A DNA stretch of 64,000 bases from assembly GCA_947452765.1 (NCBI GenBank), contig CANGDR010000006.1:1184-65183 (forward strand), read 5' to 3'. Of the stretch, positions 9 through 19,955 are shown one piece after another. How positions within the stretch are numbered: position 1 is the first letter of the stretch; each line of letters begins with the position of its first letter. Origin of the DNA: Actinomycetota bacterium. GTDB taxonomy: Bacteria; Actinomycetota; Actinomycetes; S36-B12; UBA5976. The position numbers were made by a program, and so were the translations under genes. The notes below the pieces were generated by a model. That model was given only the letters and a program-made list of their open reading frames with translations, was not told the origin of the DNA and ran no database searches.

Positions 9-686
9 TCACTTGCCACCGTCCAAGTAACCAAGTTCCTTAGCTCGCTCCATGGCTCGCGCTTTCATACCCGGTGCATCCAGTGGCCCATCTACTAACC
101 CGGCAAAGCCAATCAGAATGCGATCGCCAGAAATGGGAATTAAGTTGATGTGGACAGTCTCGCCCGGCGGGAAGTCGACATGTTCACCTGCGGGAATTTG
201 TAATCGTCGACCGTAGGCAGCCTCGCGATCGAAGTTGAGCCGAGGATTGACCTCAAAGAAGTGCATGTGTGTGGTGACTGAAATTTGAATATTCGAAATA
301 TTTTTTACCGTTAGCGTTACTACGTCAGCAACATTTGAAACCGGGAGGGCTTCTAGTCGAACTACTTCACCTGGAATGTCCAAGTCATTCGATTCAAAAT
401 CAACAACTACTAATCGGCGCCCGTCGGGAAATACCGCCTCAACGGCTATGCCAGTAAGTAGCGGACCAATTCCTGAAAGTAACTCGGATTGAGTTACTGC
501 CGACTTTCCGATGGCTAGTGCCTCACTATGAGTTTTCCCATCGCGGGCCGCCTCAACTACCGCGTGTGAGATTAGCGCCGTTGCTTCGGGCAAATTTAAT
601 TTCAAGCCGCGATCGCGTCGGGATTGGGCAAGTTGAGCCGCTGTAAAAATCAGCAGATGATCTTGTTCCGAAGGAGTTAGTTCCAC
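9..686 (-). CDS. ureAB: Fused urease gamma/beta subunit (UreAB-like), divergent
   Basis: N-half RRDRGLKLNLPEA...EAARDGK...VEAVFPDG is the gamma signature; C-half HFFEVNPRLNFDREAAYGRRLQIPAG is the beta signature. Confidence 0.9.
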   Translation of the reverse strand: MELTPSEQDHLLIFTAAQLAQSRRDRGLKLNLPEATALISHAVVEAARDGKTHSEALAIGKSAVTQSELLSGIGPLLTGIAVEAVFPDGRRLVVVDFESNDLDIPGEVVRLEALPVSNVADVVTLTVKNISNIQISVTTHMHFFEVNPRLNFDREAAYGRRLQIPAGEHVDFPPGETVHINLIPISGDRILIGFAGLVDGPLDAPGMKARAMERAKELGYLDGGK

Positions 687-700
687 AAATCTATTCTTGA

Positions 701-2296
701 CTATCCGTGAACCCGAACGCCACCAAGCCAGGTTCCAACCACTTTGGCATTACGAATTTCCATTGGCGCAAGGGAATGGACGTCACAATCGAGAAGTACT
801 ATGTCCGCCCTTTTACCAACAGCCAAGTCACCCCATAAGTTGGATTCGCCAGCTTGAACTGCGCTGCCCATTGTGTAGGCGGTTAGCGATTCATCCAAAG
901 TTAGCCGTTCACTTGGAACCCAGCCGCCTTCTGGGAATCCTTCGTCAGTTAGGCGAGTAACTGCTACGCCAATCCCTTCCATAGGCACAGGAGAGGTAAC
1001 TGGCCAATCTGAACCGAATGAAATTTTAGTTCCGCTGCGCAGCAAAGTCGCCATTGGATATTGTCGATCGGCGCGCTCTTGACCTAGGCGAGGGATGGTG
1101 AGCACGACCTGTTCGCTGGCAAGCTGTGCCCAAAGTGGCTCAAAGTTTGCAATCACATCAAGGGCTTTAAATCGCGGTAAGTCTGCTGGATCAATTAGTT
1201 GTGAGTGTGCGATAACTGGATTGATTAAATGGCCATGTAGGTTGCGGGCATTTTCAAAAGCGTCTAGCGCAGTGCGAATTCCGGCATCACCGATTGCATG
1301 GATGTGAGCTTGGAAGCCACGCTTTACAACTTCGGCAACTGCATCGATCAGTTCTTCTCGCTTCCAATTCGGAATGCCCTTGTTTGGGCAGTCACAATAA
1401 TCTTCAAGTACGGCAGCAGTGCCACCTTCGAGAATTCCATCTGCAAAGAACTTGACGGTATTACCCGTCAAAAATTCCGGAGCTTCAGTATTTACGCGAT
1501 CGCGATTAGCTTCGAAGCCATCAACTTTGGTCCGCCAAACTCCTTCGGGTTCGGCTAACCAAGCTAAGTTTGCCCGAAATTTCAGTGCCCCTGATTTGGC
1601 CGCTTGAAGCCAAGACTCCATGGTGTCATTTTCCACCCAGGCATCTTGCGCCCAAGTAACACCGCAAGCCGAAAAGGCGGCCGATGCAGCACGCAATGCC
1701 TGGTCACGTTGTTCCGAAGTTAATGCGGGAAGTAAGTCATAGACGGGTCCCCAAGCTCCCCACTCGCGCAAAGTACCGGAGGGTGTGCCATCTGCACGCA
1801 ACGATATTTCGCCATCGCTTGGTTGGGGTGTGTCTTTGTTGAATCCAGCAAGTTCTAAAGCTTTCGTATTAACCCAAGCGGTGTGGTAATCCATCGCGCG
1901 TAAAACTACTGGCCGATCGGGAACTATTTCGTCTAACCACTTGGCATCAAATTCACCTCGTGGCGCCAAACTCGGATCGTAACCTTCGCCTCTAACCCAT
2001 TCGGCATTCGGATTTACGTCTGCCCATTTCTTAATCGCGGCCAAAAGTTTCGCTAAGGTTTCAGGTCCGCGAACTGGCGCGAATAAAGTTTCGATGCCAC
2101 CGAATACCGGGTGAGCATGTCCATCTCCAAATCCTGGTAACAAGGTTCGGCCCGCTAAGTCGATTGATTCATCAGCTTTAAGTGCAAGTGCTGCATCTCC
2201 GTGCGCAACAATGACCCCATCTGTAGCCGCTAGTGCATGAGTTGAATTATTTTCATCAATCCAAACTTTGCCATTCACCCAAACTGTGGTTGTCAT
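701..2296 (-). CDS. Metal-dependent amidohydrolase, YtcJ/NfdA-like (Amidohydro_3)
   Basis: PGFGDGHAH, KFFADG, HIHAIGD, GSDWPV and GKRADIVLLD motifs. Confidence 0.88.
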   Translation of the reverse strand: MTTTVWVNGKVWIDENNSTHALAATDGVIVAHGDAALALKADESIDLAGRTLLPGFGDGHAHPVFGGIETLFAPVRGPETLAKLLAAIKKWADVNPNAEWVRGEGYDPSLAPRGEFDAKWLDEIVPDRPVVLRAMDYHTAWVNTKALELAGFNKDTPQPSDGEISLRADGTPSGTLREWGAWGPVYDLLPALTSEQRDQALRAASAAFSACGVTWAQDAWVENDTMESWLQAAKSGALKFRANLAWLAEPEGVWRTKVDGFEANRDRVNTEAPEFLTGNTVKFFADGILEGGTAAVLEDYCDCPNKGIPNWKREELIDAVAEVVKRGFQAHIHAIGDAGIRTALDAFENARNLHGHLINPVIAHSQLIDPADLPRFKALDVIANFEPLWAQLASEQVVLTIPRLGQERADRQYPMATLLRSGTKISFGSDWPVTSPVPMEGIGVAVTRLTDEGFPEGGWVPSERLTLDESLTAYTMGSAVQAGESNLWGDLAVGKRADIVLLDCDVHSLAPMEIRNAKVVGTWLGGVRVHG

Positions 2297-2377
2297 TGCT
2301 CTACCTACTCATTCGCTTTAGATCGCCTAAACACACTGTTCCAGATTCATTTCGTTTCAGTGCCCGTATTAAGAATA

Positions 2378-4027
2378 TTATTTGGCCATCTGAGAAAGGC
2401 CATACGCGACGGCGTATCTATGTCCCAACAAGCCAGCAACATTGCCCCGCCCCAATCCACTTACTTCATTAAGTTCACCAAGGATTGGAATTAGTTCATC
2501 ATCAGCAGCGGGACCGCCCACAACCACAATGTCGCGCGGTTCGCTGTGACCAGTTTGGATCGACAGACTTCTGATTATTCGTGCCACGTTATTACCTAAT
2601 GCCGCACGCTTAAGCGAGTGGCGCATGATTCGCCACTCGGCAGGTTGCAAATTTTTGCCAAATGTTAAGTAGCCAGCAGGGCCTTGAGTTACCAGTGATC
2701 CAGTTGCCGTGGCCGGAAACTCTTTAGTCTCGGGAACAAAATCCTTGGTGCCGTCTTCACCCAAGAGCACATGCGGTGAGTCAAGACGTTGCGCCGAGCC
2801 GCGCTTTACCCAGTCGGCAGCGCCGCGGGAAATACCTAAGGCTTGCGAAACCGCGGCAGTGAGTAATTCACCAGCACCAGCAGCAGAAATTTCTACCTCT
2901 CCAATTAAGTCAATCGTTCCGCCCCCAATGTCCAGGATTAATGAATCTGTCATTAAACCTGGTGTGCTATTTGCCCCAAGAGCAGCTGCCGCAGCTTCGG
3001 AAGTTGCGACTGTTACGTTAGTTGCAAAAATTTCAGCAAGTGGATAATCCGATGAATTAGTGGCCTTGGACAATTGCGCAATCGCAAGGTCGCGAGTGTG
3101 TCCAGAATTCCGTAGTCCCGTGATTGCTAGGGCTGATGTTATGTCAAAACCCCAAACATCCGAAGTAGCCTGATTTTCGTCAATGAATATCGATGTCACA
3201 TCGCCTATTTGCGACTCTGGAAATTTTGGAACAGCGTGGAATAGGTTTTCAGTAACTCCAGATCGCCACGTAACCGAACTTTCGATTTCGGGTGCGGGCT
3301 GCTGCGCAAGAGGAAACAGCCCAATCAAGATAGATCGTTCATCTTTAACCCACCGAGTCAATAAGTTAAGGGGTTCTGCTTCGACGTCACTTAATGAAAA
3401 TAGCGACTTCATTGCCCAGACGTCAGTTGCAGTCTTTAGTAATTTTCCAGAAGGTCTAACTTCCACAAACAAATATGAAGCAGCTACCGTTAAGTCAACA
3501 TCTACGCCGTCGATAACTGGAATCGCTGCGTCTAGGCGCCTAGAAATAAGTACCGCTTCATCATCAGCGGCAACAACTGCGCCAATTTTGCAACCCTTTG
3601 CTACCGCTTGGTTAATAAATTGGGCTGCGACTTCAAATCCGGTAGCGCTCGGAACTACTGCGATTAAATCATCACCTGTTGGTAACGGACTTAAAACCGA
3701 CCAAGGAGCGCCAGTTGCCGACCCATCACCAGAAACACTGTTGCTAGAGCTTGAAATTATCCGCAGCCGCCCAGTATCAGGTTGCGGTTCGTGGACCGTG
3801 GAAGTTGCAGTTGTTACCGGACTCCACGGCGCAACAACAACATGGTCGACTTGCAAATTGTGGTTGCGTTCAATCGATCGCAATAGACCTGCCGCCGCAT
3901 GAACCGAGGATTCGGATCCCTTTTGCCCCCGTGTTGGTCGCCTATCCCAAGCGACAGGCTTGTCACCTAGCGAAACCACAATTTCAGTCGTTGAGTTTCC
4001 AATGTCTATTCCTGCTACTAGATGCAT
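2378..4027 (-). CDS. Diol/glycerol dehydratase reactivase large subunit (DdrA/PduG-like)
   Basis: AGIDIGNSTTE N-terminus, ILDIGGGTID, AGAGEL, C-terminal GNVAG...RYAVAYGL; adjacent to dehydratase genes. Confidence 0.88.
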   Translation of the reverse strand: MHLVAGIDIGNSTTEIVVSLGDKPVAWDRRPTRGQKGSESSVHAAAGLLRSIERNHNLQVDHVVVAPWSPVTTATSTVHEPQPDTGRLRIISSSSNSVSGDGSATGAPWSVLSPLPTGDDLIAVVPSATGFEVAAQFINQAVAKGCKIGAVVAADDEAVLISRRLDAAIPVIDGVDVDLTVAASYLFVEVRPSGKLLKTATDVWAMKSLFSLSDVEAEPLNLLTRWVKDERSILIGLFPLAQQPAPEIESSVTWRSGVTENLFHAVPKFPESQIGDVTSIFIDENQATSDVWGFDITSALAITGLRNSGHTRDLAIAQLSKATNSSDYPLAEIFATNVTVATSEAAAAALGANSTPGLMTDSLILDIGGGTIDLIGEVEISAAGAGELLTAAVSQALGISRGAADWVKRGSAQRLDSPHVLLGEDGTKDFVPETKEFPATATGSLVTQGPAGYLTFGKNLQPAEWRIMRHSLKRAALGNNVARIIRSLSIQTGHSEPRDIVVVGGPAADDELIPILGELNEVSGLGRGNVAGLLGHRYAVAYGLSQMAK

Positions 4028-4032
4028 GAGTT

Positions 4033-4401
4033 CTATTTTGCTGTTAGTCCGCGCCGAGCATAAACATCGGCAGCCTGCAGAAATAGCTCAGCGTTCTTGA
4101 TGGCACCTTGGCTTGATAGTTCAGTTGCGATAGCAGTTAACTGATCCGCGGTAGATCGACCTGGGCGAAGCGCATCGTAGTAACCCAGCACAACTGAATC
4201 TGGCAACGAGGTTAATTCCGCAGCTCGTCTAAAGTTTGCAGCAAGCTGGGGGTTGCCATTGGCTTCCGCAACTTTTGCTTGCATCTCTAAAGTTTCGGGA
4301 TGGATCCGTACATCATCAAGAGTTATGTCGCCTCGGCGAATTGCTTCGATAGTTACATCAGTTACTGGCTTACCCGAGAATCCAAAATCACCTTTAGACA
4401 T
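4033..4401 (-). CDS. pduE: Diol dehydratase small (gamma) subunit
   Basis: DVRIHPETLEMQA...LAANFRRAAELT...YDALRPGRST...AADVYARRG. Confidence 0.9.
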   Translation of the reverse strand: MSKGDFGFSGKPVTDVTIEAIRRGDITLDDVRIHPETLEMQAKVAEANGNPQLAANFRRAAELTSLPDSVVLGYYDALRPGRSTADQLTAIATELSSQGAIKNAELFLQAADVYARRGLTAK

Positions 4402-6644
4402 TAGACGACCTCCAAAGTTTCTGGCGAGGCATTAGTGACACAATTGCGTTCTATTGCAACGAGGGAAACCACTTTAGTGTGGTACCGCGCTTCGATAGCC
4501 TCGTCAGAATATGGATTTCGAACTGGCTCCGGAGTTGCACCCTTTGCATGGCGACCAGCATTTATGCCAAGCATGCGATAAAGCTCTCGAGTTATTGTTG
4601 GCGCAACCGAATACAGTTCTAAATTGGCTAGCGGTGCCAAATCCCGCCTATGAATTAATGCAGTTCCCTTAGCTTGCAGTCCAACACTTATTCCGGATCC
4701 AGAAAGCCGAGCCGCAGTTAAGCCGATCATGCCTAAATCCAGACTGTCGTTGATACGCACAATGCGACCGACGCAGCCTTCTTCTTCAAGTCCAGCCATT
4801 AGTTCGCCGATGACATCTGTAACACTCAAGCCAGAGAGCGTCATCCAAATCTCTCGCCCGGTAGCAGGTGAAACTCCAATCACTACGTCCCTTGGGTCGT
4901 AACTGATTTCAGCAGATCCTCTTACCCGAAGGTTCTGGCTCGCAAATATTTTTTGTTCATTTCGTAAATCTTCAACCGATTTTTGTTGCCGAATGTTGTC
5001 AATCTCGGCTTGTCGTTTAGCAGTTGGCTGGTATCCGGTACCTGGGCCGGAATATTCATTCGGATCGGTAACTAGCGAAAGCACATTCATTTCTTCATCA
5101 AAAATCGCGGAAGTTTGTAAGTAATCACCGACAACGCGCGCCTTAAGCATATTGAGGCAACGTTCGGCCTCTAGATCAAAGCCATTTTCTGCCAACGCTG
5201 AAATTACATCGAGCATCGTTACGTTGGTTTCCATAATTGTTCGGGCCGCATTCAAAGGCAGCATCAGATCGCCGGCGGTAACGTCTTTAGAACCCGCCGC
5301 GTCAACTGCCTGATCTGCCCAAGTTTGACTAAAGTCACCAAGTCCCAGGTGGGAATAAACCGCAGTAACTGCATCGGTCGCACGCTTACGTAATCTAGCT
5401 ACTTCAGTTTCGTCGGCGGTGCGCAATCCACCATCAACTCCCCAGTCGCGTTGCATCGCAAGAAAATCATCAATGTCTTCGGCGTTCCACTGACTAGGAC
5501 CAAACATGTTGTCATATCTTTGGATTGAACCAAATCCGCTATTAATAAAATCTGAGCCACCAATAAATATTGGATGAGTTCGCGAGGTTCGTCGTACATC
5601 TGACTCACTCATTAATGCGTCATTACCTGTGCAGGCTTCAAGATTACGCAGCATGACCATAACGTTTTCCGCCATCATGGATCGAACTCCACCAGGTACT
5701 GCGCCTGCAACCGAGGCCGCGTCAATGCCGCCATTTTGTACGCCCTGCGATCCGATGGCGCGGGCAAGTGCAACACAACGAGCTTCAAGGTAAAACATGC
5801 TGCATTGTTCAGCCCCACCCATTAGAGCTTCAGAGCCGCCACCGGATGTTACGCGCATTTTAATTCCACGACTTGCGTATGCACTTGTTAGAAATGCTTT
5901 GGACCAAGGAGTGTCGTCACCATCAATAAAGATTTGCTCTGTGCCATACAACGAAACAGTCTCGGCATAAGAAACTAGCCCGCGCATACCAAGTGCCAGT
6001 TCCGCAGCTTCTTCGACGGAACATTGAACTAACACACCGGCCGCTCCGACAGCGGCTCCAATTGAAACTGCAACAGCATTTGATGGCGCATCCCCGGCAA
6101 CCGGAACTGTGGTTTCAAGTTCTCTAAATCCAAAGGCGGCAGCAGTAGCAGCGTCCGCAGCAAGTAGTAGCGGATCATCCGACCTGTTAGTTACATGGGC
6201 CTGATTACTCGGTGTACGCCTTGCCCGCATTTTTGTCATTGCGATAACCAATTCCGCGGCAGTCAGTCGCGAAAGTACTTCGGCAAGTTTTGCTGGCGTC
6301 ATACCTGCAGCAAGGCGAACTATGTCTTTGCGGGAGTCGTTTGGATTTACTAGCATTCGAGCAAACTCGAGACTGTCGATAGCCATAGCCTCGGGCGCAA
6401 GGTTTAAATCCAAACCATGGCGTGCAATGAATTCGTCGATTGCATCGAAGTCAGATTCTGATTTTCCGTCGAGTTCAACCACTCGGCCGTCAGAAATTTT
6501 TATGGAAGGCTTCGGGTCGTTTGGTCCGTCAAATGCAACTAGCCCTAGCTCAGGTGCCGGAGTTGCGAAGCCATCGAGATTGACGCGCTGTTCGTTCATA
6601 AAACGAAAGCGGCCAATCGGCTCGTTTGGGGTCATGCCTGGCAT
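4401..6644 (-). CDS. pduC: B12-dependent diol dehydratase, fused large (alpha) + medium (beta) subunits
   Basis: RARRTPSNQAHVTN, DGDDTPWSK, ASRGIKMR and YDNMF of the large subunit; the last ~180 aa (AGLEEEG...SGSGISVGLQAKGTALIH...NLELY) match the medium subunit. Confidence 0.92.
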   Translation of the reverse strand: MPGMTPNEPIGRFRFMNEQRVNLDGFATPAPELGLVAFDGPNDPKPSIKISDGRVVELDGKSESDFDAIDEFIARHGLDLNLAPEAMAIDSLEFARMLVNPNDSRKDIVRLAAGMTPAKLAEVLSRLTAAELVIAMTKMRARRTPSNQAHVTNRSDDPLLLAADAATAAAFGFRELETTVPVAGDAPSNAVAVSIGAAVGAAGVLVQCSVEEAAELALGMRGLVSYAETVSLYGTEQIFIDGDDTPWSKAFLTSAYASRGIKMRVTSGGGSEALMGGAEQCSMFYLEARCVALARAIGSQGVQNGGIDAASVAGAVPGGVRSMMAENVMVMLRNLEACTGNDALMSESDVRRTSRTHPIFIGGSDFINSGFGSIQRYDNMFGPSQWNAEDIDDFLAMQRDWGVDGGLRTADETEVARLRKRATDAVTAVYSHLGLGDFSQTWADQAVDAAGSKDVTAGDLMLPLNAARTIMETNVTMLDVISALAENGFDLEAERCLNMLKARVVGDYLQTSAIFDEEMNVLSLVTDPNEYSGPGTGYQPTAKRQAEIDNIRQQKSVEDLRNEQKIFASQNLRVRGSAEISYDPRDVVIGVSPATGREIWMTLSGLSVTDVIGELMAGLEEEGCVGRIVRINDSLDLGMIGLTAARLSGSGISVGLQAKGTALIHRRDLAPLANLELYSVAPTITRELYRMLGINAGRHAKGATPEPVRNPYSDEAIEARYHTKVVSLVAIERNCVTNASPETLEVV

Positions 6645-7066
6645 GCTCGCTTAAATACTTCAATTCCGGCTTGGGCACAGATTTGATCCTCGTCCCATGA
6701 TCCGCCGCTAACTCCGATTGATCCGACTACTCGTTCGCCATCCCAACACGGAATTCCACCAGCAAATGCAATGTATCGTCCGTTGCCGTTTGCATTCATA
6801 CCTGGCAAGTCGCCATCGGGTGCAACTCGTGCCCGAAGCTCACCAGTTTCAATTCGATTTGTTACTGATGTGTACGCCTTGTCAACTGCCAAATTTGGTC
6901 CAGCAAGTTCTGCGCCATCCATACGTTCAAAACTCAATAAATTTGCACCCGCATCCAAGACGGCGATGGACATCGGAGCATTGATCTCGATTGCTTTTGC
7001 TTTAGCGGCATTAGTCATTTCGAGTGCAAGTGCTAGATCAATTTCCATACGTTCCACCCTTGGCAT
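6632..7066 (-). CDS. GlcG/HbpS family heme-binding protein
   Basis: SIAVLDAG...RMDGA...AVDKAYTS...FAGGIP...GSIGVSGG...DQICA. Confidence 0.88.
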   Translation of the reverse strand: MPRVERMEIDLALALEMTNAAKAKAIEINAPMSIAVLDAGANLLSFERMDGAELAGPNLAVDKAYTSVTNRIETGELRARVAPDGDLPGMNANGNGRYIAFAGGIPCWDGERVVGSIGVSGGSWDEDQICAQAGIEVFKRACQA

Positions 7067-8109: not shown

Positions 8110-8169
8110 GACCTTATTCTTGTGGATCGACTTCTTCGACACTTATGTATTGCCCCAAAAAGTATTCGA

Positions 8170-8212
8170 AACTGAAATTGGGCACCAGCAATGCTGATGC
8201 CCAATTTCAGTT
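8170..8212. terminator. Long hairpin between permease and formamidase genes (terminator/attenuator or mRNA stabiliser)
   Basis: AACTGAAATTGGGCA...TGCCCAATTTCAGTT perfect 15-bp inverted repeat plus inner CAGC/GCTG. Confidence 0.7.
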
Positions 8213-8221
8213 GTTTTTACG

Positions 8222-9838: not shown

Positions 9839-10194
9839 TCGTACGACCCTTTCGTTTTAACGTCGAGGAGCTCCCGACATTGCTCACTTGCGGTGACGTC
9901 AGTCACACGTTTGGTACGACTTTGCCAGAAACGCAACAGCAAAACAATGAAATTGGGAGAGTTTTCCAGTGTTTTTTGGTCAAGAGAATATTGAATTTGG
10001 TCTAAAAAATCATAGTGAAGCAGACAAAATAGACATACTTGCCAGTAAAACTAAGGTTTTATGGGGATTTAGTTGATAAACCAAAGTTCAACCAAAAGTT
10101 GCTAAAAGGTATGGTCTTTTGGTCTAATTCTATGTAATCATTTGTTTAGGTGAGCTGTGAATGCAGATGCCAGGCGATAACGAAAGGTTTCGGG
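9839..10194. promoter_or_regulatory. Divergent promoter region with repeated TTTGGT(C) candidate operator half-sites
   Basis: AT-rich 356-bp gap between two divergent operons; TTTGGT at 9910, 9975, 9996 and 10118, and its complement ACCAAA at 10080 and 10091. Confidence 0.55.
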
Positions 10195-11502
10195 ATGACC
10201 CAAGAACACGTTGCTGCACCCGAATTTGATTATGGACTCTTTTCATATGACTCCAAAGAGCAAATGCTTGATAAGTCAAAAGAGTTTTGGAATCCAGGTA
10301 AAACGCAATTCTGGATTGATTCTGGCGTTCCACTTGTAATTGATCGCCGCGAAGAATACTTCATTTATGACATGTCAGGTAAACGCCTGATTGATGCGCA
10401 CCTAAATGGCGGAACTTACAACTTAGGTCACCGCAATCCTGAAGTAGTGCAAGCCGTGACCATGGCAATGCAGCATTTTGATATTGGTAATCACCATTTC
10501 CCCTCACTTGCCCGAACTGCATTAGCGGAAGCTTTGATTAAAACTGCGCCAGCTGGCCTAAGCAAAGTTATCTATGGCTCTGGTGGTGGAGAGGCAATTG
10601 ACATCGCACTTAAGACTGCACGTCATGCAACGCAAAAGCGGAAAATTGTTTCAATTATTAAGGCATATCACGGACACACTGGACTTGCAGTTGGCACTGG
10701 CGATGATCGATTCTCGAAACTTTTCCTTTCAGATCGACCAGAAGAATTTCCGCATGTACCGTTTAATGACCTAGAAGCAATGGAAGATGCATTACGGGGA
10801 CGCGATGTAGCGGCAGTAATTATGGAAACTATTCCAGCCACATATGGATTCCCACTTCCTAACCCAGGATATTTAGAGGCCGTAAAAGTACTTTGCGAGA
10901 AATATGATGCGCTGTACATTGCTGACGAAGTTCAAACCGGCTTAATGCGCACCGGAGAACTTTGGGGAATTACCAAGCACGGAATAACTCCAGACATTCT
11001 TGTCACAGGCAAGGGAATCTCTGGCGGCTTGTATCCAATTGCAGCAGTGCTTGCAACCGAGAAAGCTGCCGGCTGGTTAAACGAAGATGGCTTTGGGCAC
11101 ATCTCAACTTTTGGCGGCGCTGAACTCGGCTGTATTGCCGCACTTAAGACTTTAGAAATTTGCTCCCGTGAAGAAACCCGGTCGATGGTGCATTACATTG
11201 CTGACTACGTTGGTAAGCGGCTTGCCGAAGTTCAAGCAACATATCCTGATTGGTTTGTTGGCATCCGGCAAAACGGCGTAATTCTAGGTTTGGAATTTGC
11301 TCACCCACAAGGTGCAAAGTATGTGATGCGCCACTTATACGAGAACGGCGTGTGGGCAATTTTCTCCACGCTTGATCCGCGGGTACTGCAATACAAGCCA
11401 GGAATTTTACTTAAGCCAGAAGTAGCCGAAGAGATGCTGGATCGCACCGAGCTTGCAATTGGAAAAGCATATGCCGAAATCCGCAACGAGCGGAGATCAT
11501 GA
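10195..11502 (+). CDS. Class-III PLP aminotransferase-like enzyme (probable amino-alcohol-phosphate phospho-lyase of RMM BMC)
   Basis: SGGGEAID, AYHGHT, IADEVQTGLMRTG, GKGISGG (PLP Lys); ATG 10195 after GAAAGG RBS; first gene of the BMC operon. Confidence 0.85.
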   Translation: MTQEHVAAPEFDYGLFSYDSKEQMLDKSKEFWNPGKTQFWIDSGVPLVIDRREEYFIYDMSGKRLIDAHLNGGTYNLGHRNPEVVQAVTMAMQHFDIGNHHFPSLARTALAEALIKTAPAGLSKVIYGSGGGEAIDIALKTARHATQKRKIVSIIKAYHGHTGLAVGTGDDRFSKLFLSDRPEEFPHVPFNDLEAMEDALRGRDVAAVIMETIPATYGFPLPNPGYLEAVKVLCEKYDALYIADEVQTGLMRTGELWGITKHGITPDILVTGKGISGGLYPIAAVLATEKAAGWLNEDGFGHISTFGGAELGCIAALKTLEICSREETRSMVHYIADYVGKRLAEVQATYPDWFVGIRQNGVILGLEFAHPQGAKYVMRHLYENGVWAIFSTLDPRVLQYKPGILLKPEVAEEMLDRTELAIGKAYAEIRNERRS

Positions 11503-13073
11503 TGAGCGAGATGACTTACGAACCGTTGATGGTTGAACCAGCAGGTGTGCCGCGTGGTCGGGCAATGATAGAGCGGGCCGATTGGGCTGCTCGTGCTTAT
11601 GCGAAGTACGACGTTGCAACTGTAAATCGAATCGTTGATGCCGCAGCGTCCGCCCTGGCAGCCAGGGCACAAGAGTTCGCACGCGATGCCGTAGCCGAAA
11701 CTGGCTTTGGTGTAGTTGAACATAAAGTTCTAAAAAATGTAGCTTGCTCCACTGGAATCGTCGATGCTTATCGCGGTCAAGATTTTGTTTCGCCTGAAAT
11801 TGATGACGTAAATAAAATTGTGGCCATTCCTAGGCCAGCCGGCGTAGTCCTGGCATTAACACCATCGACTAACCCCGTAGCTACCGTTTCGTTCAAGATT
11901 ATTTTGGCCTTGATGACTCGAAACGCAATCATTATCAGCCCGCACCCGATGGCTAAGAAGGTATGCTCAGCAGCCGCCAAGGCAATGGCAGAAGCGGCAG
12001 TGGCTGCCGGTGCCCCAGATGGAATCATTCAAATTGTGGAGGATCCTTCGATCCCACTGATAAATGCCCTCATGACAGATGAACGAACCGATGTGATTGT
12101 GGCTACTGGTGGCAGTCCGGTTGTTCGGTCGGCATACCGAAGTGGCAATCCCGCTATTGGCGTTGGTCCGGGCAATGTTCCCGTACTCGTTGACTCAACC
12201 GCCGATATTCAAAAGACGGCCGCTCGAATTATTGAGAGCAAAGCATTCGATAACTCAATTTTATGCACGAACGAAAGTGTCGTAATCGCAGAAGAAGCGA
12301 TTGCAGATAAGTTGCTTTCGGCTTTCGCCCGTGAAGGTGCCTATGTTCTAAAAGATGAAGAGCGCGACGCAATTCGTAACACGGTATTTCCAGAAGGTCA
12401 TTTCAACATCAAGATGGTTGGTAAAGATGCGGTTTGGATTGCAGAGCAAGCCGGCCTAAAAGTTCCAGCAAAAACAAGAGTCTTAGTTGCACCGTTTGAC
12501 TTAGTAGTTCCGGAAGAACCATTTGCACATGAAAAGTTGTGTCCGGTCCTTGGATTTGTTCGAGTTCCAACTGCAGAGCGCGGCATTGATATTGCGCGCG
12601 CCATTTTGCGAATCACCGGAGCGGGACATTCGGCTGCAATTCATAGTGCAAATCCAGATCTCATTATGAAATTTAGTGCTGCTGTCCCAGTGCTTCGGGT
12701 TTCAGTAAATGTTGGAAATAGTCTTGGTGCTTCAGGAATCCAAACGAACTTGCCAACAACTATGACCATCGGCACTGGATTTGCTGGTCGCTCTTCGGTC
12801 GGTGAAAATCTGCAACCAAAGCACCTTATTAACTACACCCGGTTGGCGTATAACTCCGATGTACGCGAAGTCATGCCAGCATTTGCTGGTTTGAATCCCT
12901 GGGTTGCACCGGCTGGTCCGGTCCCTGCCTACCCAACGGCATCAAATGATCGCAATAACGCTCAAGTGCCTGCGCCGATTCATCGTGAACCAATTTCCCA
13001 AGATGTTGCGGAATTGCGAGATGAAATTCGCAAATTGATTGTCGAAGAACTTCACGCATTGATTAAGAACTAA
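11499..13073 (+). CDS. BMC-associated acylating aldehyde dehydrogenase with C-terminal encapsulation peptide
   Basis: PSTNP, ATGG, GVGPGNVP, FDNSILCTNE, HEKLCPVL; Pro-rich linker then amphipathic helix ELRDEIRKLIVEELHALIK. Confidence 0.9.
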   Translation: MMSEMTYEPLMVEPAGVPRGRAMIERADWAARAYAKYDVATVNRIVDAAASALAARAQEFARDAVAETGFGVVEHKVLKNVACSTGIVDAYRGQDFVSPEIDDVNKIVAIPRPAGVVLALTPSTNPVATVSFKIILALMTRNAIIISPHPMAKKVCSAAAKAMAEAAVAAGAPDGIIQIVEDPSIPLINALMTDERTDVIVATGGSPVVRSAYRSGNPAIGVGPGNVPVLVDSTADIQKTAARIIESKAFDNSILCTNESVVIAEEAIADKLLSAFAREGAYVLKDEERDAIRNTVFPEGHFNIKMVGKDAVWIAEQAGLKVPAKTRVLVAPFDLVVPEEPFAHEKLCPVLGFVRVPTAERGIDIARAILRITGAGHSAAIHSANPDLIMKFSAAVPVLRVSVNVGNSLGASGIQTNLPTTMTIGTGFAGRSSVGENLQPKHLINYTRLAYNSDVREVMPAFAGLNPWVAPAGPVPAYPTASNDRNNAQVPAPIHREPISQDVAELRDEIRKLIVEELHALIKN

Positions 13074-13090
13074 TTAGAGAAGAGAGATAC

Positions 13091-13690
13091 ATGGCAGAGC
13101 TACGGTCGTTCATCTATATCGACCAGATGCAACCTCAAACTATGTGCTACCTAGGTACATGGGTTAAGGGCGCTTTGCCTCGAGCAAATATGGCTGCACA
13201 AGTCATCGAAGTCGCACCTGGCTTAGATATTGAAGCGTTAACAGATGTGGCACTTAAACACGCAAATGTTCAGGCTGGAATCCTGTTCGTGGAACGCACG
13301 TTTGGCTACTTAGAAATACACGGGCCCACTGAAGAAGTGCGGGCAGCAGGTCAGGCAGTACTTGCAGCGCTCGGAACATCTGAGGCGGAAGCGACTAAGC
13401 CTAAAATCTTGGCTTCTCGAGTTGTACCTTCGATTGATCAGCAACATGCATTCTTGATCAATCGCAACAAGGTCGGCTCGATGATCCTCCCTGGTGAATC
13501 TTTGTACATACTCGAAGTTCAGCCAGCTTCGTATGCAATCTTGGCAACCAACGAAGCGGAAAAGGCAACTGACATTAAAGTTGTCGACTATCGCATGATT
13601 GGCGCAACCGGCCGCGTATATCTATCCGGCAAAGAAGCAAATGTTCGAGCAGCAGCAGAAGTTGCTGAACGAGTTTTGAGTGAGCGCTGA
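13091..13690 (+). CDS. BMC shell protein, tandem-domain BMC-T
   Basis: ELRSFIYID..Q, IEVAPGL, VERTFGYLE, LINRN, ATNEAEKA, GATGRVYLSG. Confidence 0.92.
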   Translation: MAELRSFIYIDQMQPQTMCYLGTWVKGALPRANMAAQVIEVAPGLDIEALTDVALKHANVQAGILFVERTFGYLEIHGPTEEVRAAGQAVLAALGTSEAEATKPKILASRVVPSIDQQHAFLINRNKVGSMILPGESLYILEVQPASYAILATNEAEKATDIKVVDYRMIGATGRVYLSGKEANVRAAAEVAERVLSER

Positions 13691-14178
13691 TGGCTACAGA
13701 TAACGAAATGCTACGCGCGCTTGTGCGTGAAGCGCTGCGTGATGCTCTTGGTGGCGCAAGCGGTGCTAGCGAAATTGCTAAAGCATTGTCTGGAAACGCA
13801 ACACCCGTTCAAAAGCAGGTGCAAGTTGTAGAGATGGTTTCCTTGGCAACGGATGCGCAAGTGCAATCTTTTGTACATCGCATTCTTGACCTAGCGGCCG
13901 ATGAAAAAACTTTGAGCGCATTACGCCAGGGTGAAATCGTTTTTCAATTGTCTGACCAAGCTAAAGCTAATGCTGCTGACAATTCTGGAACCACTCGCGT
14001 AGACAAGGGTGCTGTTACCGAGTCAACCATTAGAAAAGCCGCCGAATCAGGATCAACATTGATCGTAGGGCGCAAAGTTGTCGTCACATCATTAGCGCGA
14101 GATAAAGCTCGCGATTTAGGTGTGACGATCATTAAGGAAAGTCAACAAGATAATCAGAAGGGATCGGTGATGCGCTGA
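13690..14178 (+). CDS. BMC-associated hypothetical protein with N-terminal encapsulation-peptide-like helix
   Basis: NEMLRALVREALRDALG helix; translationally coupled between shell genes. Confidence 0.7.
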   Translation: MATDNEMLRALVREALRDALGGASGASEIAKALSGNATPVQKQVQVVEMVSLATDAQVQSFVHRILDLAADEKTLSALRQGEIVFQLSDQAKANAADNSGTTRVDKGAVTESTIRKAAESGSTLIVGRKVVVTSLARDKARDLGVTIIKESQQDNQKGSVMR

Positions 14179-14447
14179 TGTTAAAAGCGCGAGTCATCGG
14201 CAATGTATGGGCGACCCGTCGTCTAACCGAGATTCCCCATGGGGCGTTTCTCGAGGTCGAAGTTGAAGGTGGCGCACACTTGGTTGCTTTCGACGTATTG
14301 GGTTCCGGAATTGGGGAAAGCGTTTTAGTTTCAACTGGCTCGGTAGCAGCAGCTTGGTTCTCAGACGTAACACCACCAATTGATGCTCTCATCATCGGTT
14401 CGATTGATGAGGACTCTAAGAGTTCTGGGAAGCACAGCGCTTCTTAG
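14178..14447 (+). CDS. BMC vertex pentamer (BMC-P, EutN/CcmL family)
   Basis: ARVIGNVWAT...VAFDVLGSGIGESVLV..GS.A...PIDALIIGSID. Confidence 0.93.
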   Translation: MLKARVIGNVWATRRLTEIPHGAFLEVEVEGGAHLVAFDVLGSGIGESVLVSTGSVAAAWFSDVTPPIDALIIGSIDEDSKSSGKHSAS

Positions 14448-14530
14448 TACACCGCCTGGGAAACCAGGTAAGTAAGACCGAATAAACCGAAAGCAAACAA
14501 CCGTTTGCAATCACAAATAGGAGAAAGAAT

Positions 14531-14815
14531 ATGTCAAGCAACGCACTGGGCTTGATCGAGACTAAGGGATATGTTGCAGCCGTTGCTGCCGCAGATGCCA
14601 TGGTTAAGGCAGCCAATGTAACTATTGTTGCGCGTGAAGAAGTTGGCGACGGTCTTGTAACTGTAGTCATCGTGGGTGATGTCGGCGCAGTTAAGGCTGC
14701 AACTGACGCAGGTGCCGAAGCAGTTAACCAAGTTGGCGAACTAGTTTCACAGCACGTGATTCCACGTCCACACGCAGAACTAAGTAAGTACTTCAAGGTA
14801 GGCGAGTCCGCGTGA
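14531..14815 (+). CDS. BMC shell hexamer (BMC-H)
   Basis: ALGLIETKG...[11 protein letters not shown]...GDVGAVKAA...HVIPRPH. Confidence 0.97.
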
Positions 14816-15468
14816 GTGCGGGCCCACTCGTAGCGGGGCCCGAACTACGCGTCTACTTACTTGTTGAAGAGCTCCAGCAGCAATTTGCTGCATACATGGG
14901 CACGCCGACGCGGGCTCGGGGTTATCCGCCTTATGGTGGTCAACACTCGTTGATCATTGAGGTGGCACCCGGGCTTGCGATCGAGCGAGTAATTGATTTG
15001 GCGCTGAAGTCGGTTCCTGAAGTTGAGCCCGGCATCTTGTTCGTGGAACGGCAGTTTGGTGTGTTAGAAGTTCATGCTTCTGATATCGAATTGGTCAAAC
15101 GGGCTGGTCAAGCGATCCTTGATGGCATTAATGCATCGGCAGCTGACCAACTACGCCCACGGATTCTTTACAGCGACATCATCGAGAACATCACGGATCA
15201 ACATGCCATAATTCTCAACCGCAATCGCCAAGCATCTATGGTGATGCCCGGTGAGTCGCTATTGGTTTATGAAATGACTCCGGCATTGTTTGCGACAGTG
15301 GCTGCAAATGAAGCGGAGAAAGTCGCCCCAGATGTGACATTAGTTGACGTTCAAATGATTGGCGCCGCGGGACGTGTCTATATGAGCGGTTCTACCGCAA
15401 GGGTTACGTTAGCTCGCGATGCAATTACTAAGGCTCTCGAGTCTGTGGTTGGCCGCGAGCAAGGTTAA
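14812..15468 (+). CDS. BMC shell protein, second BMC-T
   Basis: [49 protein letters not shown]; paralogous to 13091..13690. Confidence 0.92.
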
Positions 15469-15542
15469 ACATTTTTCTTCCCCAAAAGTGACAAAACCGA
15501 TTGGCAAGTAAGCCAAAATAAGGGTGTTAGTAGGAGAGTTAA

Positions 15543-16532
15543 ATGAGTGGGTATTCAAACGAACCTACAAAGTTGCATGAGTTCGCGGTGGATGCTGTCG
15601 CGAAGTTCGGGTATCCACAAGATTCCGAGATTTCGCTACTCAACCTGTCGGAAAATGCAACTTTTAAGGTAACCGATCGGAACTCTGGCCTTGATACGAT
15701 CCTTCGAATTCATCGTCCGCAATATCACACCAAAGAAGCGATCCAAAGTGAACTCGACTGGGTTCAATCATTGCGCGAAATTCAATTAGTTAGAACTCCG
15801 GCTATTTTGCCGGCTGGTTCTGGTGAGCAAATTATTCTCGCAAAAGATTCGACCGGTGAAGAGCGACATGCTGTGATGTTTGAATTTATGCCCGGAGTTG
15901 AACCCACCGAAGATCGCATGGTTGATGATTTCAAAACTTTAGGCGCCATAACCGCACGACTCCATGATCAATCAAAGCAATGGAAACGTCCAAGTAATTT
16001 CTTTAGATTTACTTGGGACCATGAGACTGCGCTAGGCCCGAATGGTCACTGGGGATCTTGGCGCGATGGACTTGCCATGGGGCCAACTGAACTTGAAATA
16101 CTTGGCAAACTGTCTGACACACTCAAATCTCGATTAGAACGCTATGGCAAGAGTGAAGATCGATTTGGGTTGGTACATGCAGACATGCGGTTAGCTAATT
16201 TATTAGTTGCAGGCAGCGACGTAACAGTTATCGATTTTGACGACTGCGGATTTAGCTGGTTTATGTATGACCTTGGGTCGTCCGTTTCGTTTATCGAGGA
16301 TCACCCACTGATACCCGATATGACTGCGTCCTGGGTCGATGGCTATCGAAGCGTTGCCACCTTGAGCAAAGAAGAGGAAGCGGAACTTCCAACTTTCATA
16401 ATGTTTCGTCGGCTACTTCTTGTGTCTTGGGTAGGGACACATCAAGATACCGAGACCGGCAAGGAAATGGGCACAAATTTCACGAAAGTAAGTTGTGAAT
16501 TAGCGGAAAACTACCTATCCAAGTTCGCATAA
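15543..16532 (+). CDS. APH/choline-kinase-fold phosphotransferase (probable aminopropanol kinase)
   Basis: SENATF, LRIHRP, HADMRLANLL, IDFDDCG; conserved position in RMM loci. Confidence 0.85.
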   Translation: MSGYSNEPTKLHEFAVDAVAKFGYPQDSEISLLNLSENATFKVTDRNSGLDTILRIHRPQYHTKEAIQSELDWVQSLREIQLVRTPAILPAGSGEQIILAKDSTGEERHAVMFEFMPGVEPTEDRMVDDFKTLGAITARLHDQSKQWKRPSNFFRFTWDHETALGPNGHWGSWRDGLAMGPTELEILGKLSDTLKSRLERYGKSEDRFGLVHADMRLANLLVAGSDVTVIDFDDCGFSWFMYDLGSSVSFIEDHPLIPDMTASWVDGYRSVATLSKEEEAELPTFIMFRRLLLVSWVGTHQDTETGKEMGTNFTKVSCELAENYLSKFA

Positions 16533-16580
16533 TCAGAGATACTTTTCGGTAACTCGAATAATCGTAAATTGGGAGTACAA

Positions 16581-17363
16581 ATGTTTACATCAGTAGCTGG
16601 ATACTCAGTAATTGTTACTGGCGGCACCAAAGGAATTGGCAAAGGCATTGCCAGAGTTTTTGCTAAAGCTGGGGCAAATGTTCTTATCACGGGTCGAGAC
16701 GAAGTAAGTGCAAAAGCAGCCTGCGCAGAACTAACTGCTTTGGGTGGCGGCACCGTGACTTATTTGCTTGCTGAAGTTAGTAGCAAATCTGACTGTGATC
16801 GTGTTGCAGCGACTGCAATCGAGCGCAATGGTGGAATTGACGTACTTTGCGCCAACGCAGGAATTTTCCCAGACTCAAAATTGGCAACTATGTCGGAAGC
16901 TGACATGGACTTAGTCTTCGGTACCAATGTGAAAGGAACCATGCTTTCAGTTCAAGCTTGCCTACCAGCCTTGGAAAAATCTGGGCATGGCCGAATTGTT
17001 CTTACTTCATCGATCACTGGCCCAATCACAGGATTCCCAGGGTGGTCCCATTACGGAGCTAGTAAAGCAGCGCAACTTGGTTTTATGCGAACAGCTGCAA
17101 TTGAATTAGCTCCAAAAGGAATAACAGTCAACGCGGTGTTGCCAGGAAATATTGCGACTGAAGGCTTAGCTGATATGGGTCCTGAGTATCGAAAAGCAAT
17201 GGAAGCATCAGTTCCGCAAGGTCGTCTCGGCGTAGTTGAAGATATTGGTAACGCAGCACTCTTTTTTGCAACAGCAGAGGCGGCTTATGTTACGGGCCAA
17301 GCGCTAGTCATCGATGGTGGCCAGATTTTGCCAGAATCACTTGCAGCACTCGAAGCAATGTAG
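16581..17363 (+). CDS. Short-chain dehydrogenase (probable 1-amino-2-propanol dehydrogenase / aminoacetone reductase)
   Basis: [35 protein letters not shown]; ATG after GGGAG RBS. Confidence 0.85.
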
Positions 17364-17387
17364 CAAGTACGCAGTTACTGTTGTTCT

Positions 17388-18173
17388 GTGAATGAAAACG
17401 ATCTAGGTCGCACTGCCGAAGATGTGCGTCAGCGCATCTTGGCACAAATTTCGACTGGTCAACTTCGCCCAGGTCAAAAATTGATTGCAGAACGAGAACT
17501 CGCGGCTGATTATCAAGTCAGTAGGTCATCTTTGCGACAAGCTCTCTCAGCTTTAGAAGAAATGGGCGTGGTTCGAAGGCTGCCCGGCAGGGGTGGTGGC
17601 ACATTTGTAGCTTCCGAGAAACTTGATCGTGACTTGTCACAAATTGTTGGCGTGCCATCGTTACTTAGGGGCCAAGGATTTACAGCCGGTACGAAATTGA
17701 TAAGCGCATCCGTAATGCAGGCCGACGCAAAGACTCAGCTTGCCTTGGGGCTTTCGGCAGGTGAACATATTTTTGATGTCGTGCGAATTCGGTTGGCAGA
17801 TAGCATTCCAATTTCGCTTGAACATGCAAGGTTCCCAGCTGATATGTTTCCCGGCTTACTAGAACGTCCACTGGGTGATTCGATTTATGAGTTATTGAGC
17901 AAACATTATGGAACTGTTCCGGATGAGGCAGTGGAACAAATTGATTTGATTAACGCCACTACTGACGAAGCTCGAATCCTAGAAGTGCAATTGGGATCAC
18001 CTTTGTTATCTGTGACTCGAACAACCATGGATACGCAAGGGCGGAAAATCGAATATTCGCATGACTTATTTCGAGGCGATCGGACTCGGATAACTGTTCG
18101 GACCAAAGGCCTGCCGCCAACGGCAGACTCACCTGGCGAGCGTGGCAGAACTGTGGAAATCAAGAAAAGTTAA
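17388..18173 (+). CDS. GntR family regulator, HutC/UTRA subfamily
   Basis: wHTH ERELAADYQVSRSSLRQAL...GTFV plus UTRA domain (SIYELL...EYSHDLFRGD). Confidence 0.9.
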   Translation: MNENDLGRTAEDVRQRILAQISTGQLRPGQKLIAERELAADYQVSRSSLRQALSALEEMGVVRRLPGRGGGTFVASEKLDRDLSQIVGVPSLLRGQGFTAGTKLISASVMQADAKTQLALGLSAGEHIFDVVRIRLADSIPISLEHARFPADMFPGLLERPLGDSIYELLSKHYGTVPDEAVEQIDLINATTDEARILEVQLGSPLLSVTRTTMDTQGRKIEYSHDLFRGDRTRITVRTKGLPPTADSPGERGRTVEIKKS

Positions 18174-18323
18174 TTTTGAGATGCCCTATAAACATTGGGT
18201 TTTTTCTTGCAATACCGATCGTTACTGAAAAATGCCCTTTAAATACCCGCAATTGAGGCCAAACCTACGCTAAACAAGTCTTAATCAGATACTCGATCTC
18301 GGTCGAGGGAAAAGGTGACTTGT

Positions 18324-19871: not shown

Positions 19872-19881
19872 TAAGCAATAA

Positions 19882-19923
19882 ACAACAAGAGGTCGGCCAA
19901 TTGGTCGGCCTCTTGTTGTATTT
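19882..19923 (+). terminator. Intrinsic terminator
   Basis: ACAACAAGAGG...CCTCTTGTTGT stem followed by ATTT just after the permease stop. Confidence 0.75.
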
Positions 19924-19955
19924 AAACCATGAACGAGATTGGATACAATCAATCC

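Follow-up and report, generated by a model that had tools for sequence, protein, structure and literature searches.

An RMM2-type microcompartment locus with a candidate two-entry route to propionaldehyde, beside a urease-paralog module, in a small-genome freshwater actinobacterium

Two divergent operons and their shared control region

The DNA analyzed here, hereafter the window, is a stretch of 64,000 nucleotides (bases 1184-65183 of contig 6, with a G+C content of ~49%) from a 1.6-Mb actinobacterial assembly in 46 contigs that is 91.65% complete. Its first 18 kb contain genes for a bacterial microcompartment (BMC) resembling the Rhodococcus/Mycobacterium microcompartment (RMM), which face an operon encoding a B12-dependent diol dehydratase and, beyond it, genes for an amidohydrolase and a urease-like protein. 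An earlier note, made from the sequence alone, had described this region as two tightly packed operons diverging from a 356-bp gap, and this description holds. All the gene families concerned are recovered in the open reading frame (ORF) list and by Pfam, and consecutive genes either share 1-13 bp or lie no more than 81 bp apart in the left arm and 83 bp in the right arm. The gap (9839-10194) measures exactly 356 bp because the aminotransferase-fold gene that opens the right arm starts at ATG 10195, a codon conserved in 11 aligned loci, rather than at GTG 10150 as in the mechanical ORF list. Families were assigned using Pfam and NCBIfam with the cut-offs of the models, while solved relatives were taken from PDB matches.

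The right arm, which lies entirely on the plus strand, starts with genes for a class-III aminotransferase-fold protein (10195-11502; Pfam Aminotran_3) and an acylating aldehyde dehydrogenase of the CoA-dependent type (11499-13073; Pfam Aldedh, with no NCBIfam acetylating model of the EutE/AdhE type reaching its cut-off). These are followed by the shell genes, which encode a tandem-domain BMC-T protein (13091-13690; two stretches matching Pfam BMC), a 162-aa protein with no Pfam family but a conserved position in RMM loci (13690-14178), a BMC-P pentamer or vertex protein (14178-14447; Pfam EutN_CcmL), a BMC-H hexamer protein (14531-14815; Pfam BMC; PDB 5l38, E 1e-39), and a 218-aa protein (14812-15468). 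The latter, missed by Pfam and listed as hypothetical in the earlier note, turned out to be a second, divergent BMC-T paralog, 47% identical to the first, a likeness that can be seen in the translations, and it serves as a marker specific for RMM loci. The arm ends with an APH-family kinase (15543-16532; Pfam APH; best PDB match 6ef6, E 2.6e-88), a short-chain dehydrogenase (SDR) (16569-17363; Pfam adh_short; best PDB matches 6ci8 and 6ci9, E ~1e-99), and a GntR/HutC-type regulator with a UTRA domain (17388-18173; Pfam GntR and UTRA). The shell complement consists of one BMC-H, two BMC-T and one BMC-P, and BMC-domain matches in the genome are confined to this locus. No phosphotransacylase (PTAC) or alcohol dehydrogenase family was detected among the 18 locus proteins scanned, a genome-wide search not having been made.

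That the right arm corresponds to the RMM gene set, as the earlier note had it, is supported by solved relatives and by conserved gene order. The PDB entry best matching BMC-H, 5l38, is entitled "MSM0272 - RMM microcompartment shell protein," while we take 6ef6 to be the Mycobacterium smegmatis (S)-1-amino-2-propanol kinase and 6ci8/6ci9 the aminopropanol dehydrogenase of the same species. The aminotransferase-fold protein is the homolog of an RMM enzyme that Mallette and Kimber reportedly proposed in 2018 to be a phospho-lyase acting on 1-amino-2-propanol O-phosphate. The core set, that is, permease, aminotransferase-fold gene, aldehyde dehydrogenase, shell, phosphotransferase, SDR and GntR regulator, is syntenic with other RMM loci, in which the aminotransferase-fold protein is 73-98% identical. 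For the Mycobacterium pathway (RMM/AAUM), we follow the proposal as outlined in the relevant passages of PMC8156839.

Two proteins of the right arm have an amphipathic terminus. In the aldehyde dehydrogenase, a C-terminal amphipathic tail, LR(D/E)EIRxLIxEEL, comes after a Pro/Ala-rich linker and is retained in 11 of 11 homologs from 12 loci, gammaproteobacterial ones included (the twelfth, L142, has no qualifying homolog). The 162-aa protein begins with an amphipathic helix similar to that tail. By resemblance to known examples, both are putative encapsulation peptides. In the Atlas, the 162-aa protein matches only clusters of hypothetical proteins, plus a weak, sub-threshold lead (0.84) to PDU_like.

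The left arm comprises eight genes on the minus strand. Reading away from the control region, these encode an APC-family permease, perm1 (8222-9838; Pfam AA_permease_2); an FmdA_AmdA-family hydrolase of the acetamidase/formamidase type, hereafter FmdA (7066-8142; Pfam FmdA_AmdA; best PDB match 5ubu, "putative acetamidase/formamidase," E 3e-57); a GlcG/HbpS-like (DUF336) protein (6632-7066; Pfam PF03928); a fusion of the large and medium dehydratase subunits, PduC-PduD, hereafter PduCD (4401-6644; 747 aa; Pfam Dehydratase_LU, E 1.5e-235, and Dehydratase_MU); a PduE-like small subunit of B12 diol/glycerol dehydratase (4033-4401; 122 aa; Pfam Dehydratase_SU, with residues 9-118 matching profile positions 20-130); and a large-subunit-like diol dehydratase reactivase (2378-4027; 549 aa; Pfam DDR and DDR_swiveling, with NCBIfam PduG below its cut-off). 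The last two genes encode a YtcJ-like metal amidohydrolase of the Amidohydro_3 family (701-2296; 531 aa; Pfam PF07969, E 2.9e-95; no NCBIfam model at its cut-off) and a urease gamma-beta fusion, ure(AB) (9-686; Pfam Urease_gamma and Urease_beta; NCBIfam "bifunctional urease subunit gamma/beta," 249 bits against a cut-off of 243). An NCBIfam hit of the gamma-beta protein to "T6SS effector deamidase TecA" is spurious (19.8 bits, cut-off 220). The left-arm families named in the earlier note are all present, except that the urease alpha-like gene lies outside the window. It was found in the 1183 contig bases to its left (L001:2-1195, minus strand), where it overlaps the gamma-beta gene by four bases and is cut by the contig end.

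The control region contains a cluster of TTTGGTY/RACCAAA half-sites at 9975-10124, where 5 of the 62 WTTGGTY matches in the window fall within 150 bp, and the half-site blocks are conserved across the 11 aligned loci. The ~100-nt permease leader harbors a conserved inverted repeat, GTGAC-N3-GTCAC, at 9894-9906 (within 9892-9908), as well as the palindrome GGAGCTCC at 9867-9874. The WTTGGTY-type repeats look like half-sites for a GntR/HutC-type regulator. The GntR/UTRA protein is a candidate for the control of both arms; GntR control of the SDR in response to aminopropanol is cited by Axen et al. (2014, PMC4207490). A search for a shared operator in front of the relocated GlcG-dehydratase operon of two other loci described below, L140 and L146, gave nothing convincing, and the region upstream of GlcG there looks coding; in this high-G+C family, the gap between the permease and aminotransferase-fold genes displays GACCGGACC / GGTCCGGTC repeats instead. 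An Rfam scan of positions 1-24000, at E values up to 0.1, produced no match and no riboswitch. Promoter and terminator predictions were uninformative: 3 promoter-like sites were called where 21.5 would be expected, and 25 terminator-like sites where 21.8 would be.

Immediately after the GntR/UTRA gene, positions 18315-21712 encode another APC permease, a CoA-transferase of family III and a regulator of the GntR/FCD type. In a congeneric genome (L134), too, the CoA-transferase is found behind the regulator, and it could be involved in propionyl-CoA handling or CoA recycling.

Three separable modules in the left arm

To place these genes in other genomes, we used the PduCD fusion as a query and retrieved dehydratase-centered loci with 10-kb flanks for the best 80 of 232 relatives, in which homologs of all the window proteins were located by tblastn. 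Per-gene counts include only the loci with enough flank for that gene. In parallel, 401 genomes of the class, taken as a fixed sample, were searched for FmdA (at least 65% identity), PduCD (at least 68%) and the second BMC-T (at least 67%), and seven further loci, including L140-L144 and L146, were fetched from this sample for module comparison. The nearest public loci, as judged by the dehydratase (87-89% identity), come from freshwater metagenome-assembled genomes (MAGs) mostly labeled Candidatus Nanopelagicales or Actinomycetota.

Within the dehydratase-centered set, PduE is present in all 75 loci, the reactivase in 60 of 64, GlcG upstream of PduCD in 59 of 75, the permease in 48 of 59, and FmdA in 44 of 65. 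Of the 46 loci whose upstream flank measures 9 kb or more, 42 have the RMM BMC-H gene; among the four that do not, L038 has its shell further downstream. The order of the RMM core genes is the same as in the window in L140-L146 and in at least 40 of the dehydratase-centered loci. The orientation of the two arms varies, the RMM arm being divergent from the dehydratase in 38 of the best 80 loci, in tandem in 7 and downstream in 2, to which L140 and L146 add a convergent arrangement. In contrast, Amidohydro_3 was found in only 10 of 52 loci, and the urease alpha-like gene in 10 of the 47 with at least 6 kb of downstream flank. These ten urease-bearing loci are the closest relatives of the window (L002, L005, L006, L009, L011 and L013-L017), with a dehydratase identity of at least ~82%. 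FmdA and PduCD are thus found beside RMM genes in other genomes, while Amidohydro_3 and the urease-like genes join them only in the closest relatives.

Among the 401 genomes, the second BMC-T was detected in 28 and PduCD in 26, with 23 having both, of which 21 have the two genes on the same contig at most ~10.5 kb apart; the other two assemblies are fragmented. PduCD without a shell was seen in three genomes, two MAGs that are 68-78% complete and one complete, single-contig genome (G010). Five genomes have an RMM without this dehydratase clade nearby, which is RMM1-like. FmdA, present in 30 of the 401 genomes, occurs in 22 of the 28 RMM genomes versus 8 of the 373 others. This tally and that of urease alpha given below include three genomes flagged as unpublished (G011, G019 and G040), on which none of the specific claims made here depends. 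FmdA matches in G231, G063, G137, G279, G215 and G148 each contain one in-frame TGA, which may reflect alignment past the true start into the upstream gene, and the match in G118 is in two pieces.

Rearranged loci show how the left arm is divided. L140 and L146 read [FmdA <- permease] [aminotransferase-fold -> ... -> GntR] [reactivase <- PduE <- PduCD <- GlcG]. Here FmdA has remained beside the permease, at one end of the RMM arm, and GlcG beside the dehydratase, at the other. In L141, an RMM locus, the permease-FmdA pair is present and the dehydratase is not, while L143 and L144 have the permease only; in all three, perm1 is divergent from the aminotransferase-fold gene. Consequently, the left arm consists of three modules. 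The first, permease plus FmdA-like hydrolase, travels with the RMM core whether the dehydratase is there or not. The second, GlcG, PduCD, PduE and reactivase, adjoins RMM genes in three arrangements. The third, Amidohydro_3 plus ure(AB)C, lies next to the dehydratase in the lineage of the window and nowhere else in the set. In the window, the permease-FmdA and GlcG-dehydratase sub-modules are joined in one tight operon headed by the RMM permease.

The association of dehydratase and RMM extends to a second phylum. Two gammaproteobacterial loci, L018 and L038, contain the dehydratase-reactivase genes, an AraC-type regulator, an ABC importer, the SDR, the kinase and the aminotransferase-fold gene, followed by the aldehyde dehydrogenase, BMC-T, a homolog of the 162-aa protein, BMC-P, BMC-H and the second BMC-T. 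Such gammaproteobacterial RMM loci differ in gene order and transporter, and are without FmdA or GlcG. L018 and L038 had been regarded as shell-less loci combining dehydratase and aminopropanol genes, but because their aldehyde dehydrogenases have the conserved tail we fetched more DNA, found the shell genes just past the 10-kb flank, and withdrew this interpretation. Two loci from gammaproteobacterial MAGs, L152 (G406:C18:59000-66000) and L153, are of the RMM2 type; the identity of their dehydratase to its actinobacterial counterpart, 79-81%, suggests that there was transfer from one phylum to another. The dehydratase-RMM association holds across rearrangements and in two phyla. The only shell-less case left is G010, in which the permease, FmdA, GlcG, PduCD, PduE and reactivase genes diverge from those for the aminotransferase-fold protein, the kinase and the SDR (L142, G010:C1:2840000-2859999). 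No RMM shell match was found anywhere in this complete genome, the RMM aldehyde dehydrogenase is replaced by a distant one (29% identity), and G010 looks like a natural shell-less variant.

The dehydratase and the urease paralog

Two of the modules could be examined at the level of motifs. PduCD scores 842.9 bits against the NCBIfam model "propanediol/glycerol family dehydratase large subunit" (cut-off 788) and aligns over its full length with the fused glycerol dehydratase in PDB 9vi2 (E 6e-211). Compared to the latter, the motifs NQxH (148-151), ETTV (177-180), GTE (234-236), QNG (303-305), SD (348-349) and SG (369-370) are all unchanged, and we take these stretches to be the substrate and calcium ligands of classical diol/glycerol dehydratases. 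Because these motifs are unchanged, we take the substrate to be a vicinal diol. On chemical grounds, 3-amino-1,2-propanediol would be converted to 3-aminopropanal and not to aminoacetone, and 3-aminopropanal would not be an RMM substrate. As for subunit architecture, no small reactivase subunit was seen at the locus. In the PDU system, N-terminal extensions target PduD and PduE. Such extensions are absent here, since the PduE match begins at profile position 20 and the medium-subunit match, inside the fusion, at position 23.

For the cofactor, the window encodes a PduO-type cob(I)alamin adenosyltransferase (~54628-55134, minus strand) ~36 kb from the locus, and contig 11 encodes a methylmalonyl-CoA mutase. 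The adenosyltransferase would supply adenosylcobalamin to both the dehydratase and the mutase. Since the two genes are present in the genome, B12 adenosylation and an exit for propionyl-CoA are possible.

The urease-like module presents a different situation. The full-length alpha protein of a near relative (L005:15980-18345) scores 608 bits with the NCBIfam urease-alpha "subfamily" model (cut-off 354), but is below the cut-off of the TIGR01792 equivalog model (528 versus 680 bits). The HxH, KIHED, HTD, HVEG, AH and SSD motifs, presumably the urease metal ligands, are intact both in this protein and in the window's partial alpha. Over the 401 genomes, matches are bimodal, with a paralog clade 54-63% identical to the query in 53 other genomes and canonical ureC at 38-48%. 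Counting the window's own genome and its congener, the paralog clade is present in 55 of the 401 genomes, and some large genomes have both kinds. UreF, UreD and UreG were not found in the window's genome, at its 91.65% completeness. UreF was likewise missing from five of five close relatives and from five of five paralog-only genomes that are 96-100% complete, so that the total stands at 0 of 11 paralog-only genomes (G000, G001-G005, G173, G214, G044, G246 and G100). As a positive control, UreF was detected in four of five genomes that have canonical ureC as well, each time beside canonical ureC. The window's partial alpha shares intact metal ligands with canonical nickel ureases, but the UreD, UreF and UreG that accompany these were not found in its genome. 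Its genes instead have the layout of a ure(AB)C-only cluster, with a fused gamma-beta gene followed by alpha and no adjacent ure accessory genes. Clusters of "only ure(AB)C genes" in S. coelicolor and S. avermitilis are mentioned in the text of a 2008 paper. The window's pair differs in being located behind Amidohydro_3 and in adjoining a microcompartment locus; moreover, the Streptomyces-size genomes checked also have canonical urease and UreF, while the window's genome and five relatives show no UreF.

The surroundings of this paralog suggest a life outside the RMM. Of 18 other Actinomycetes loci centered on it, 9 have an Amidohydro_3 homolog (37-60% identity) within ~8 kb, and 7 of these 9 also have a PotA-like ABC ATPase, as in polyamine-type importers. 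Shell and dehydratase genes are absent from all 18; three have one isolated homolog each of a right-arm enzyme (aminotransferase-fold, 29% identity; APH, 50%; SDR, 30%), and one has sarcosine/dimethylglycine-dehydrogenase-like genes with a full ABC importer. In a near relative of the window, the genes behind ure(AB)C encode a protein of the C45/AAT family, an oxidoreductase of the DAO family and an ABC importer comprising two permeases and two binding proteins. In five genomes (G243, G238, G100, G127 and G279), RMM2 and the paralog are unlinked, being separated by ~100 and ~700 kb or located on other contigs. Because Amidohydro_3 and ure(AB)C are absent from 37 of 47 dehydratase loci, unlinked in these five genomes and found elsewhere without an RMM, we conclude from these comparisons that they probably form a separate nitrogen-compound module that in this lineage has become a neighbor of RMM2.

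A probable system of two entries and one exit

The combination of an RMM with a B12 dehydratase, which the earlier note correctly ascribed to some RMM variants, is a catalogued but uncharacterized type and not a new one. In the sections of Axen et al. (2014, PMC4207490) devoted to these loci, RMM1 and RMM2 are distinguished by the absence or presence of diol dehydratase genes, which in RMM2 are on the opposite strand; the authors prefer a view in which the RMM2 compartment makes no use of the dehydratase, with a "bifunctional" compartment as the alternative. RMM2 is retained by Sutter et al. (2021, PMC8217296), whose passages on these types mention phylum outliers and assign BMC-T proteins of the double-stacking (dp) clade to both RMM1 and RMM2. 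We found no paper that brings together microcompartments and Nanopelagicales, or microcompartment, acetamidase and diol dehydratase, although published supplementary tables may list such loci. The main text of a 2025 paper on cultivated Nanopelagicales contains none of the terms microcompartment, propanediol, urease and aminoacetone.

The window shares with RMM2 the core from permease to GntR, the opposite-strand diol dehydratase and the lack of a PTAC or alcohol dehydrogenase gene in the locus. It differs in its host, a 1.6-Mb freshwater actinobacterium with MAGs labeled Candidatus Nanopelagicales as its nearest public relatives; in the joining of permease-FmdA and GlcG-dehydratase in one operon (FmdA and GlcG may be listed in supplementary tables); and in Amidohydro_3 and ure(AB)C directly following the dehydratase operon. 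The RMM1 or AAUM locus of M. smegmatis has homologs of the SDR, kinase, aminotransferase-fold protein, aldehyde dehydrogenase, shell, permease and GntR regulator, as seen from synteny with L143, but has no adjacent dehydratase; other hydrolases are reported there and absent from RMM2, according to the corresponding passage of Axen et al. (2014, PMC4207490). The propanediol utilization (PDU) system of Salmonella also has a PduCDE-type dehydratase with reactivase, an acylating aldehyde dehydrogenase converting propionaldehyde to propionyl-CoA, and a BMC shell. However, the window has an RMM-type shell set and a PduC-PduD fusion, neither PduD nor PduE has its N-terminal extension, and no PduL, PduQ, PduS or PduO was found in the locus, which sets it apart from the PDU type.

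We consider it probable that the RMM2-type locus at positions 2378-18173 works as a propionaldehyde system with two entries and one exit, and that a separate module begins at 9-2296. Through the first entry, the permease and the FmdA-family hydrolase, part of the RMM core, might release an amine from an amide; the SDR would interconvert aminoacetone and 1-amino-2-propanol, the APH-type kinase would phosphorylate the aminopropanol, and the aminotransferase-fold phospho-lyase would turn aminopropanol phosphate into propionaldehyde, ammonia and phosphate. Through the second, the fused B12 dehydratase, maintained by its reactivase, would convert 1,2-propanediol to the same aldehyde. The acylating aldehyde dehydrogenase would then produce propionyl-CoA, a step that we place inside the shell because of the encapsulation-type tail, and propionyl-CoA could proceed via the B12-dependent methylmalonyl-CoA mutase encoded elsewhere in the genome. 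Both arms are probably co-regulated by the GntR/UTRA protein via the shared 356-bp region. We favor the "bifunctional" option because the phospho-lyase route and 1,2-propanediol dehydration would both end in propionaldehyde. Of the import-and-deacylation front end envisaged in the earlier note, what survives is a possible role for the permease-FmdA pair, which travels with the RMM core, and not for the other left-arm hydrolases.

Several points weigh against this reading. No amphipathic or encapsulation-type extension could be seen by eye on PduCD, PduE, the reactivase, GlcG or FmdA, so that the dehydratase may or may not be located inside the shell, and propionaldehyde made in the cytosol would be awkward. 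Nor is it obvious where a planktonic aerobe would obtain 1,2-propanediol. FmdA, a putative hydrolase, is missing from 21 of the 65 loci with enough flank. The genomes counted are kin, so that the counts overstate independence and are descriptive rather than a statistical test. No terminator-like site was called in the 81-bp gap before the same-strand Amidohydro_3 gene, and co-transcription of Amidohydro_3 and ure(AB)C with the reactivase is possible in this lineage. No experimental or expression study of RMM2 was found in the literature, where the papers naming it look like catalogues, a survey of microbiomes and a structural study of a carboxysome shell protein. Finally, the preference expressed when RMM2 was named was a different one.

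That preference, stated in the pertinent section of PMC4207490, would make the dehydratase a mere neighbor that acts in the cytosol on diols or glycerol, with the compartment serving amino-alcohol degradation only. It agrees with the strand of the dehydratase, opposite to the shell genes, with the lack of visible encapsulation-type extensions on PduCD and PduE, and with G010, where the full left operon stands beside the SDR, kinase and aminotransferase-fold genes without an RMM shell match. Nevertheless, 23 of the 26 dehydratase genomes have an RMM shell, within ~10.5 kb in 21 of the 23, and the association persists through three or more rearrangements and in two phyla. Moreover, the dehydratase genes diverge from the RMM arm in the window and 37 other loci and, in the window, are in the same operon downstream of the RMM permease, and both routes would give an aldehyde that the tailed dehydrogenase should use. 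We therefore regard a purely cytosolic bystander as unlikely. More improbable still is a direct action of the dehydratase on 1-amino-2-propanol, for example on the other enantiomer, in which migration of the hydroxyl would yield a carbinolamine that decomposes to propionaldehyde and ammonia, skipping the kinase and the phospho-lyase. All that speaks for such a bypass is that this dehydratase clade is tightly and repeatedly linked to aminopropanol genes and lies behind a permease of the amine type, but the diol and calcium-site motifs of classical dehydratases (whose roles we assume) are unchanged, and we know of no precedent for a dehydratase acting on 1-amino-2-propanol. We give it very little credence.

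The model put forward in the earlier note makes the whole left arm a cytosolic feeder, which would import an N-acyl, N-formyl or N-carbamoyl amino-alcohol or amino-diol, strip the N-substituent with three hydrolases, and have the dehydratase form an amino-carbonyl for the compartment. In its favor are the eight same-strand genes with gaps of at most 81 bp, the lack of a called terminator-like site between the reactivase and Amidohydro_3, the adjacency of these two genes in 10 of the 10 close relatives with enough flank (the gap, 81 bp in the window, is 85-134 bp in nine relatives), and a permease-FmdA pair that is truly RMM-associated. As a single linear pathway, this model is nonetheless not supported. 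In 37 of 47 loci, the dehydratase is not followed by Amidohydro_3 and ure(AB)C, which are there in the other 10 only, and the two modules coexist unlinked in five sampled genomes. The 18 other ure(AB)C loci, half of them with Amidohydro_3, have neither shell nor dehydratase, and in the nearest relative the module runs on into C45, DAO and ABC importer genes. In addition, the classical diol/glycerol motifs argue for a diol, and 3-amino-1,2-propanediol would give 3-aminopropanal, which would not enter the RMM pathway. We find the feeder model improbable. Its claim to an uncharacterized combination stands insofar as no characterized RMM with a dehydratase was found, but the type had already been catalogued as RMM2.

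Returning to the two-entry system that we favor, the role of the RMM2 dehydratase was left open at its naming, in the passage on this type in Axen et al. (2014, PMC4207490), and the "bifunctional" option now appears more natural. What is added here are three separable left-arm modules and the observation of a urease paralog that, found without UreF, offers a side lead on the assembly of urease-type metal centers without UreDFG. That such very small planktonic actinobacteria possess a microcompartment locus is also ecologically notable. A bolder version, which we advance only tentatively, is that RMM2 is an obligate two-substrate propionaldehyde organelle, with the dehydratase as its second signature enzyme, permease-FmdA as a front end for uptake and deacylation of N-acylated aminopropanol or aminoacetone, and beside it a urease paralog perhaps devoted to another substrate or metal. 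If true, this would contradict the reading preferred when RMM2 was named, and it would mean that a genome-streamlined, abundant lineage of freshwater actinobacteria spends ~1% of 1.6 Mb on a two-substrate organelle.

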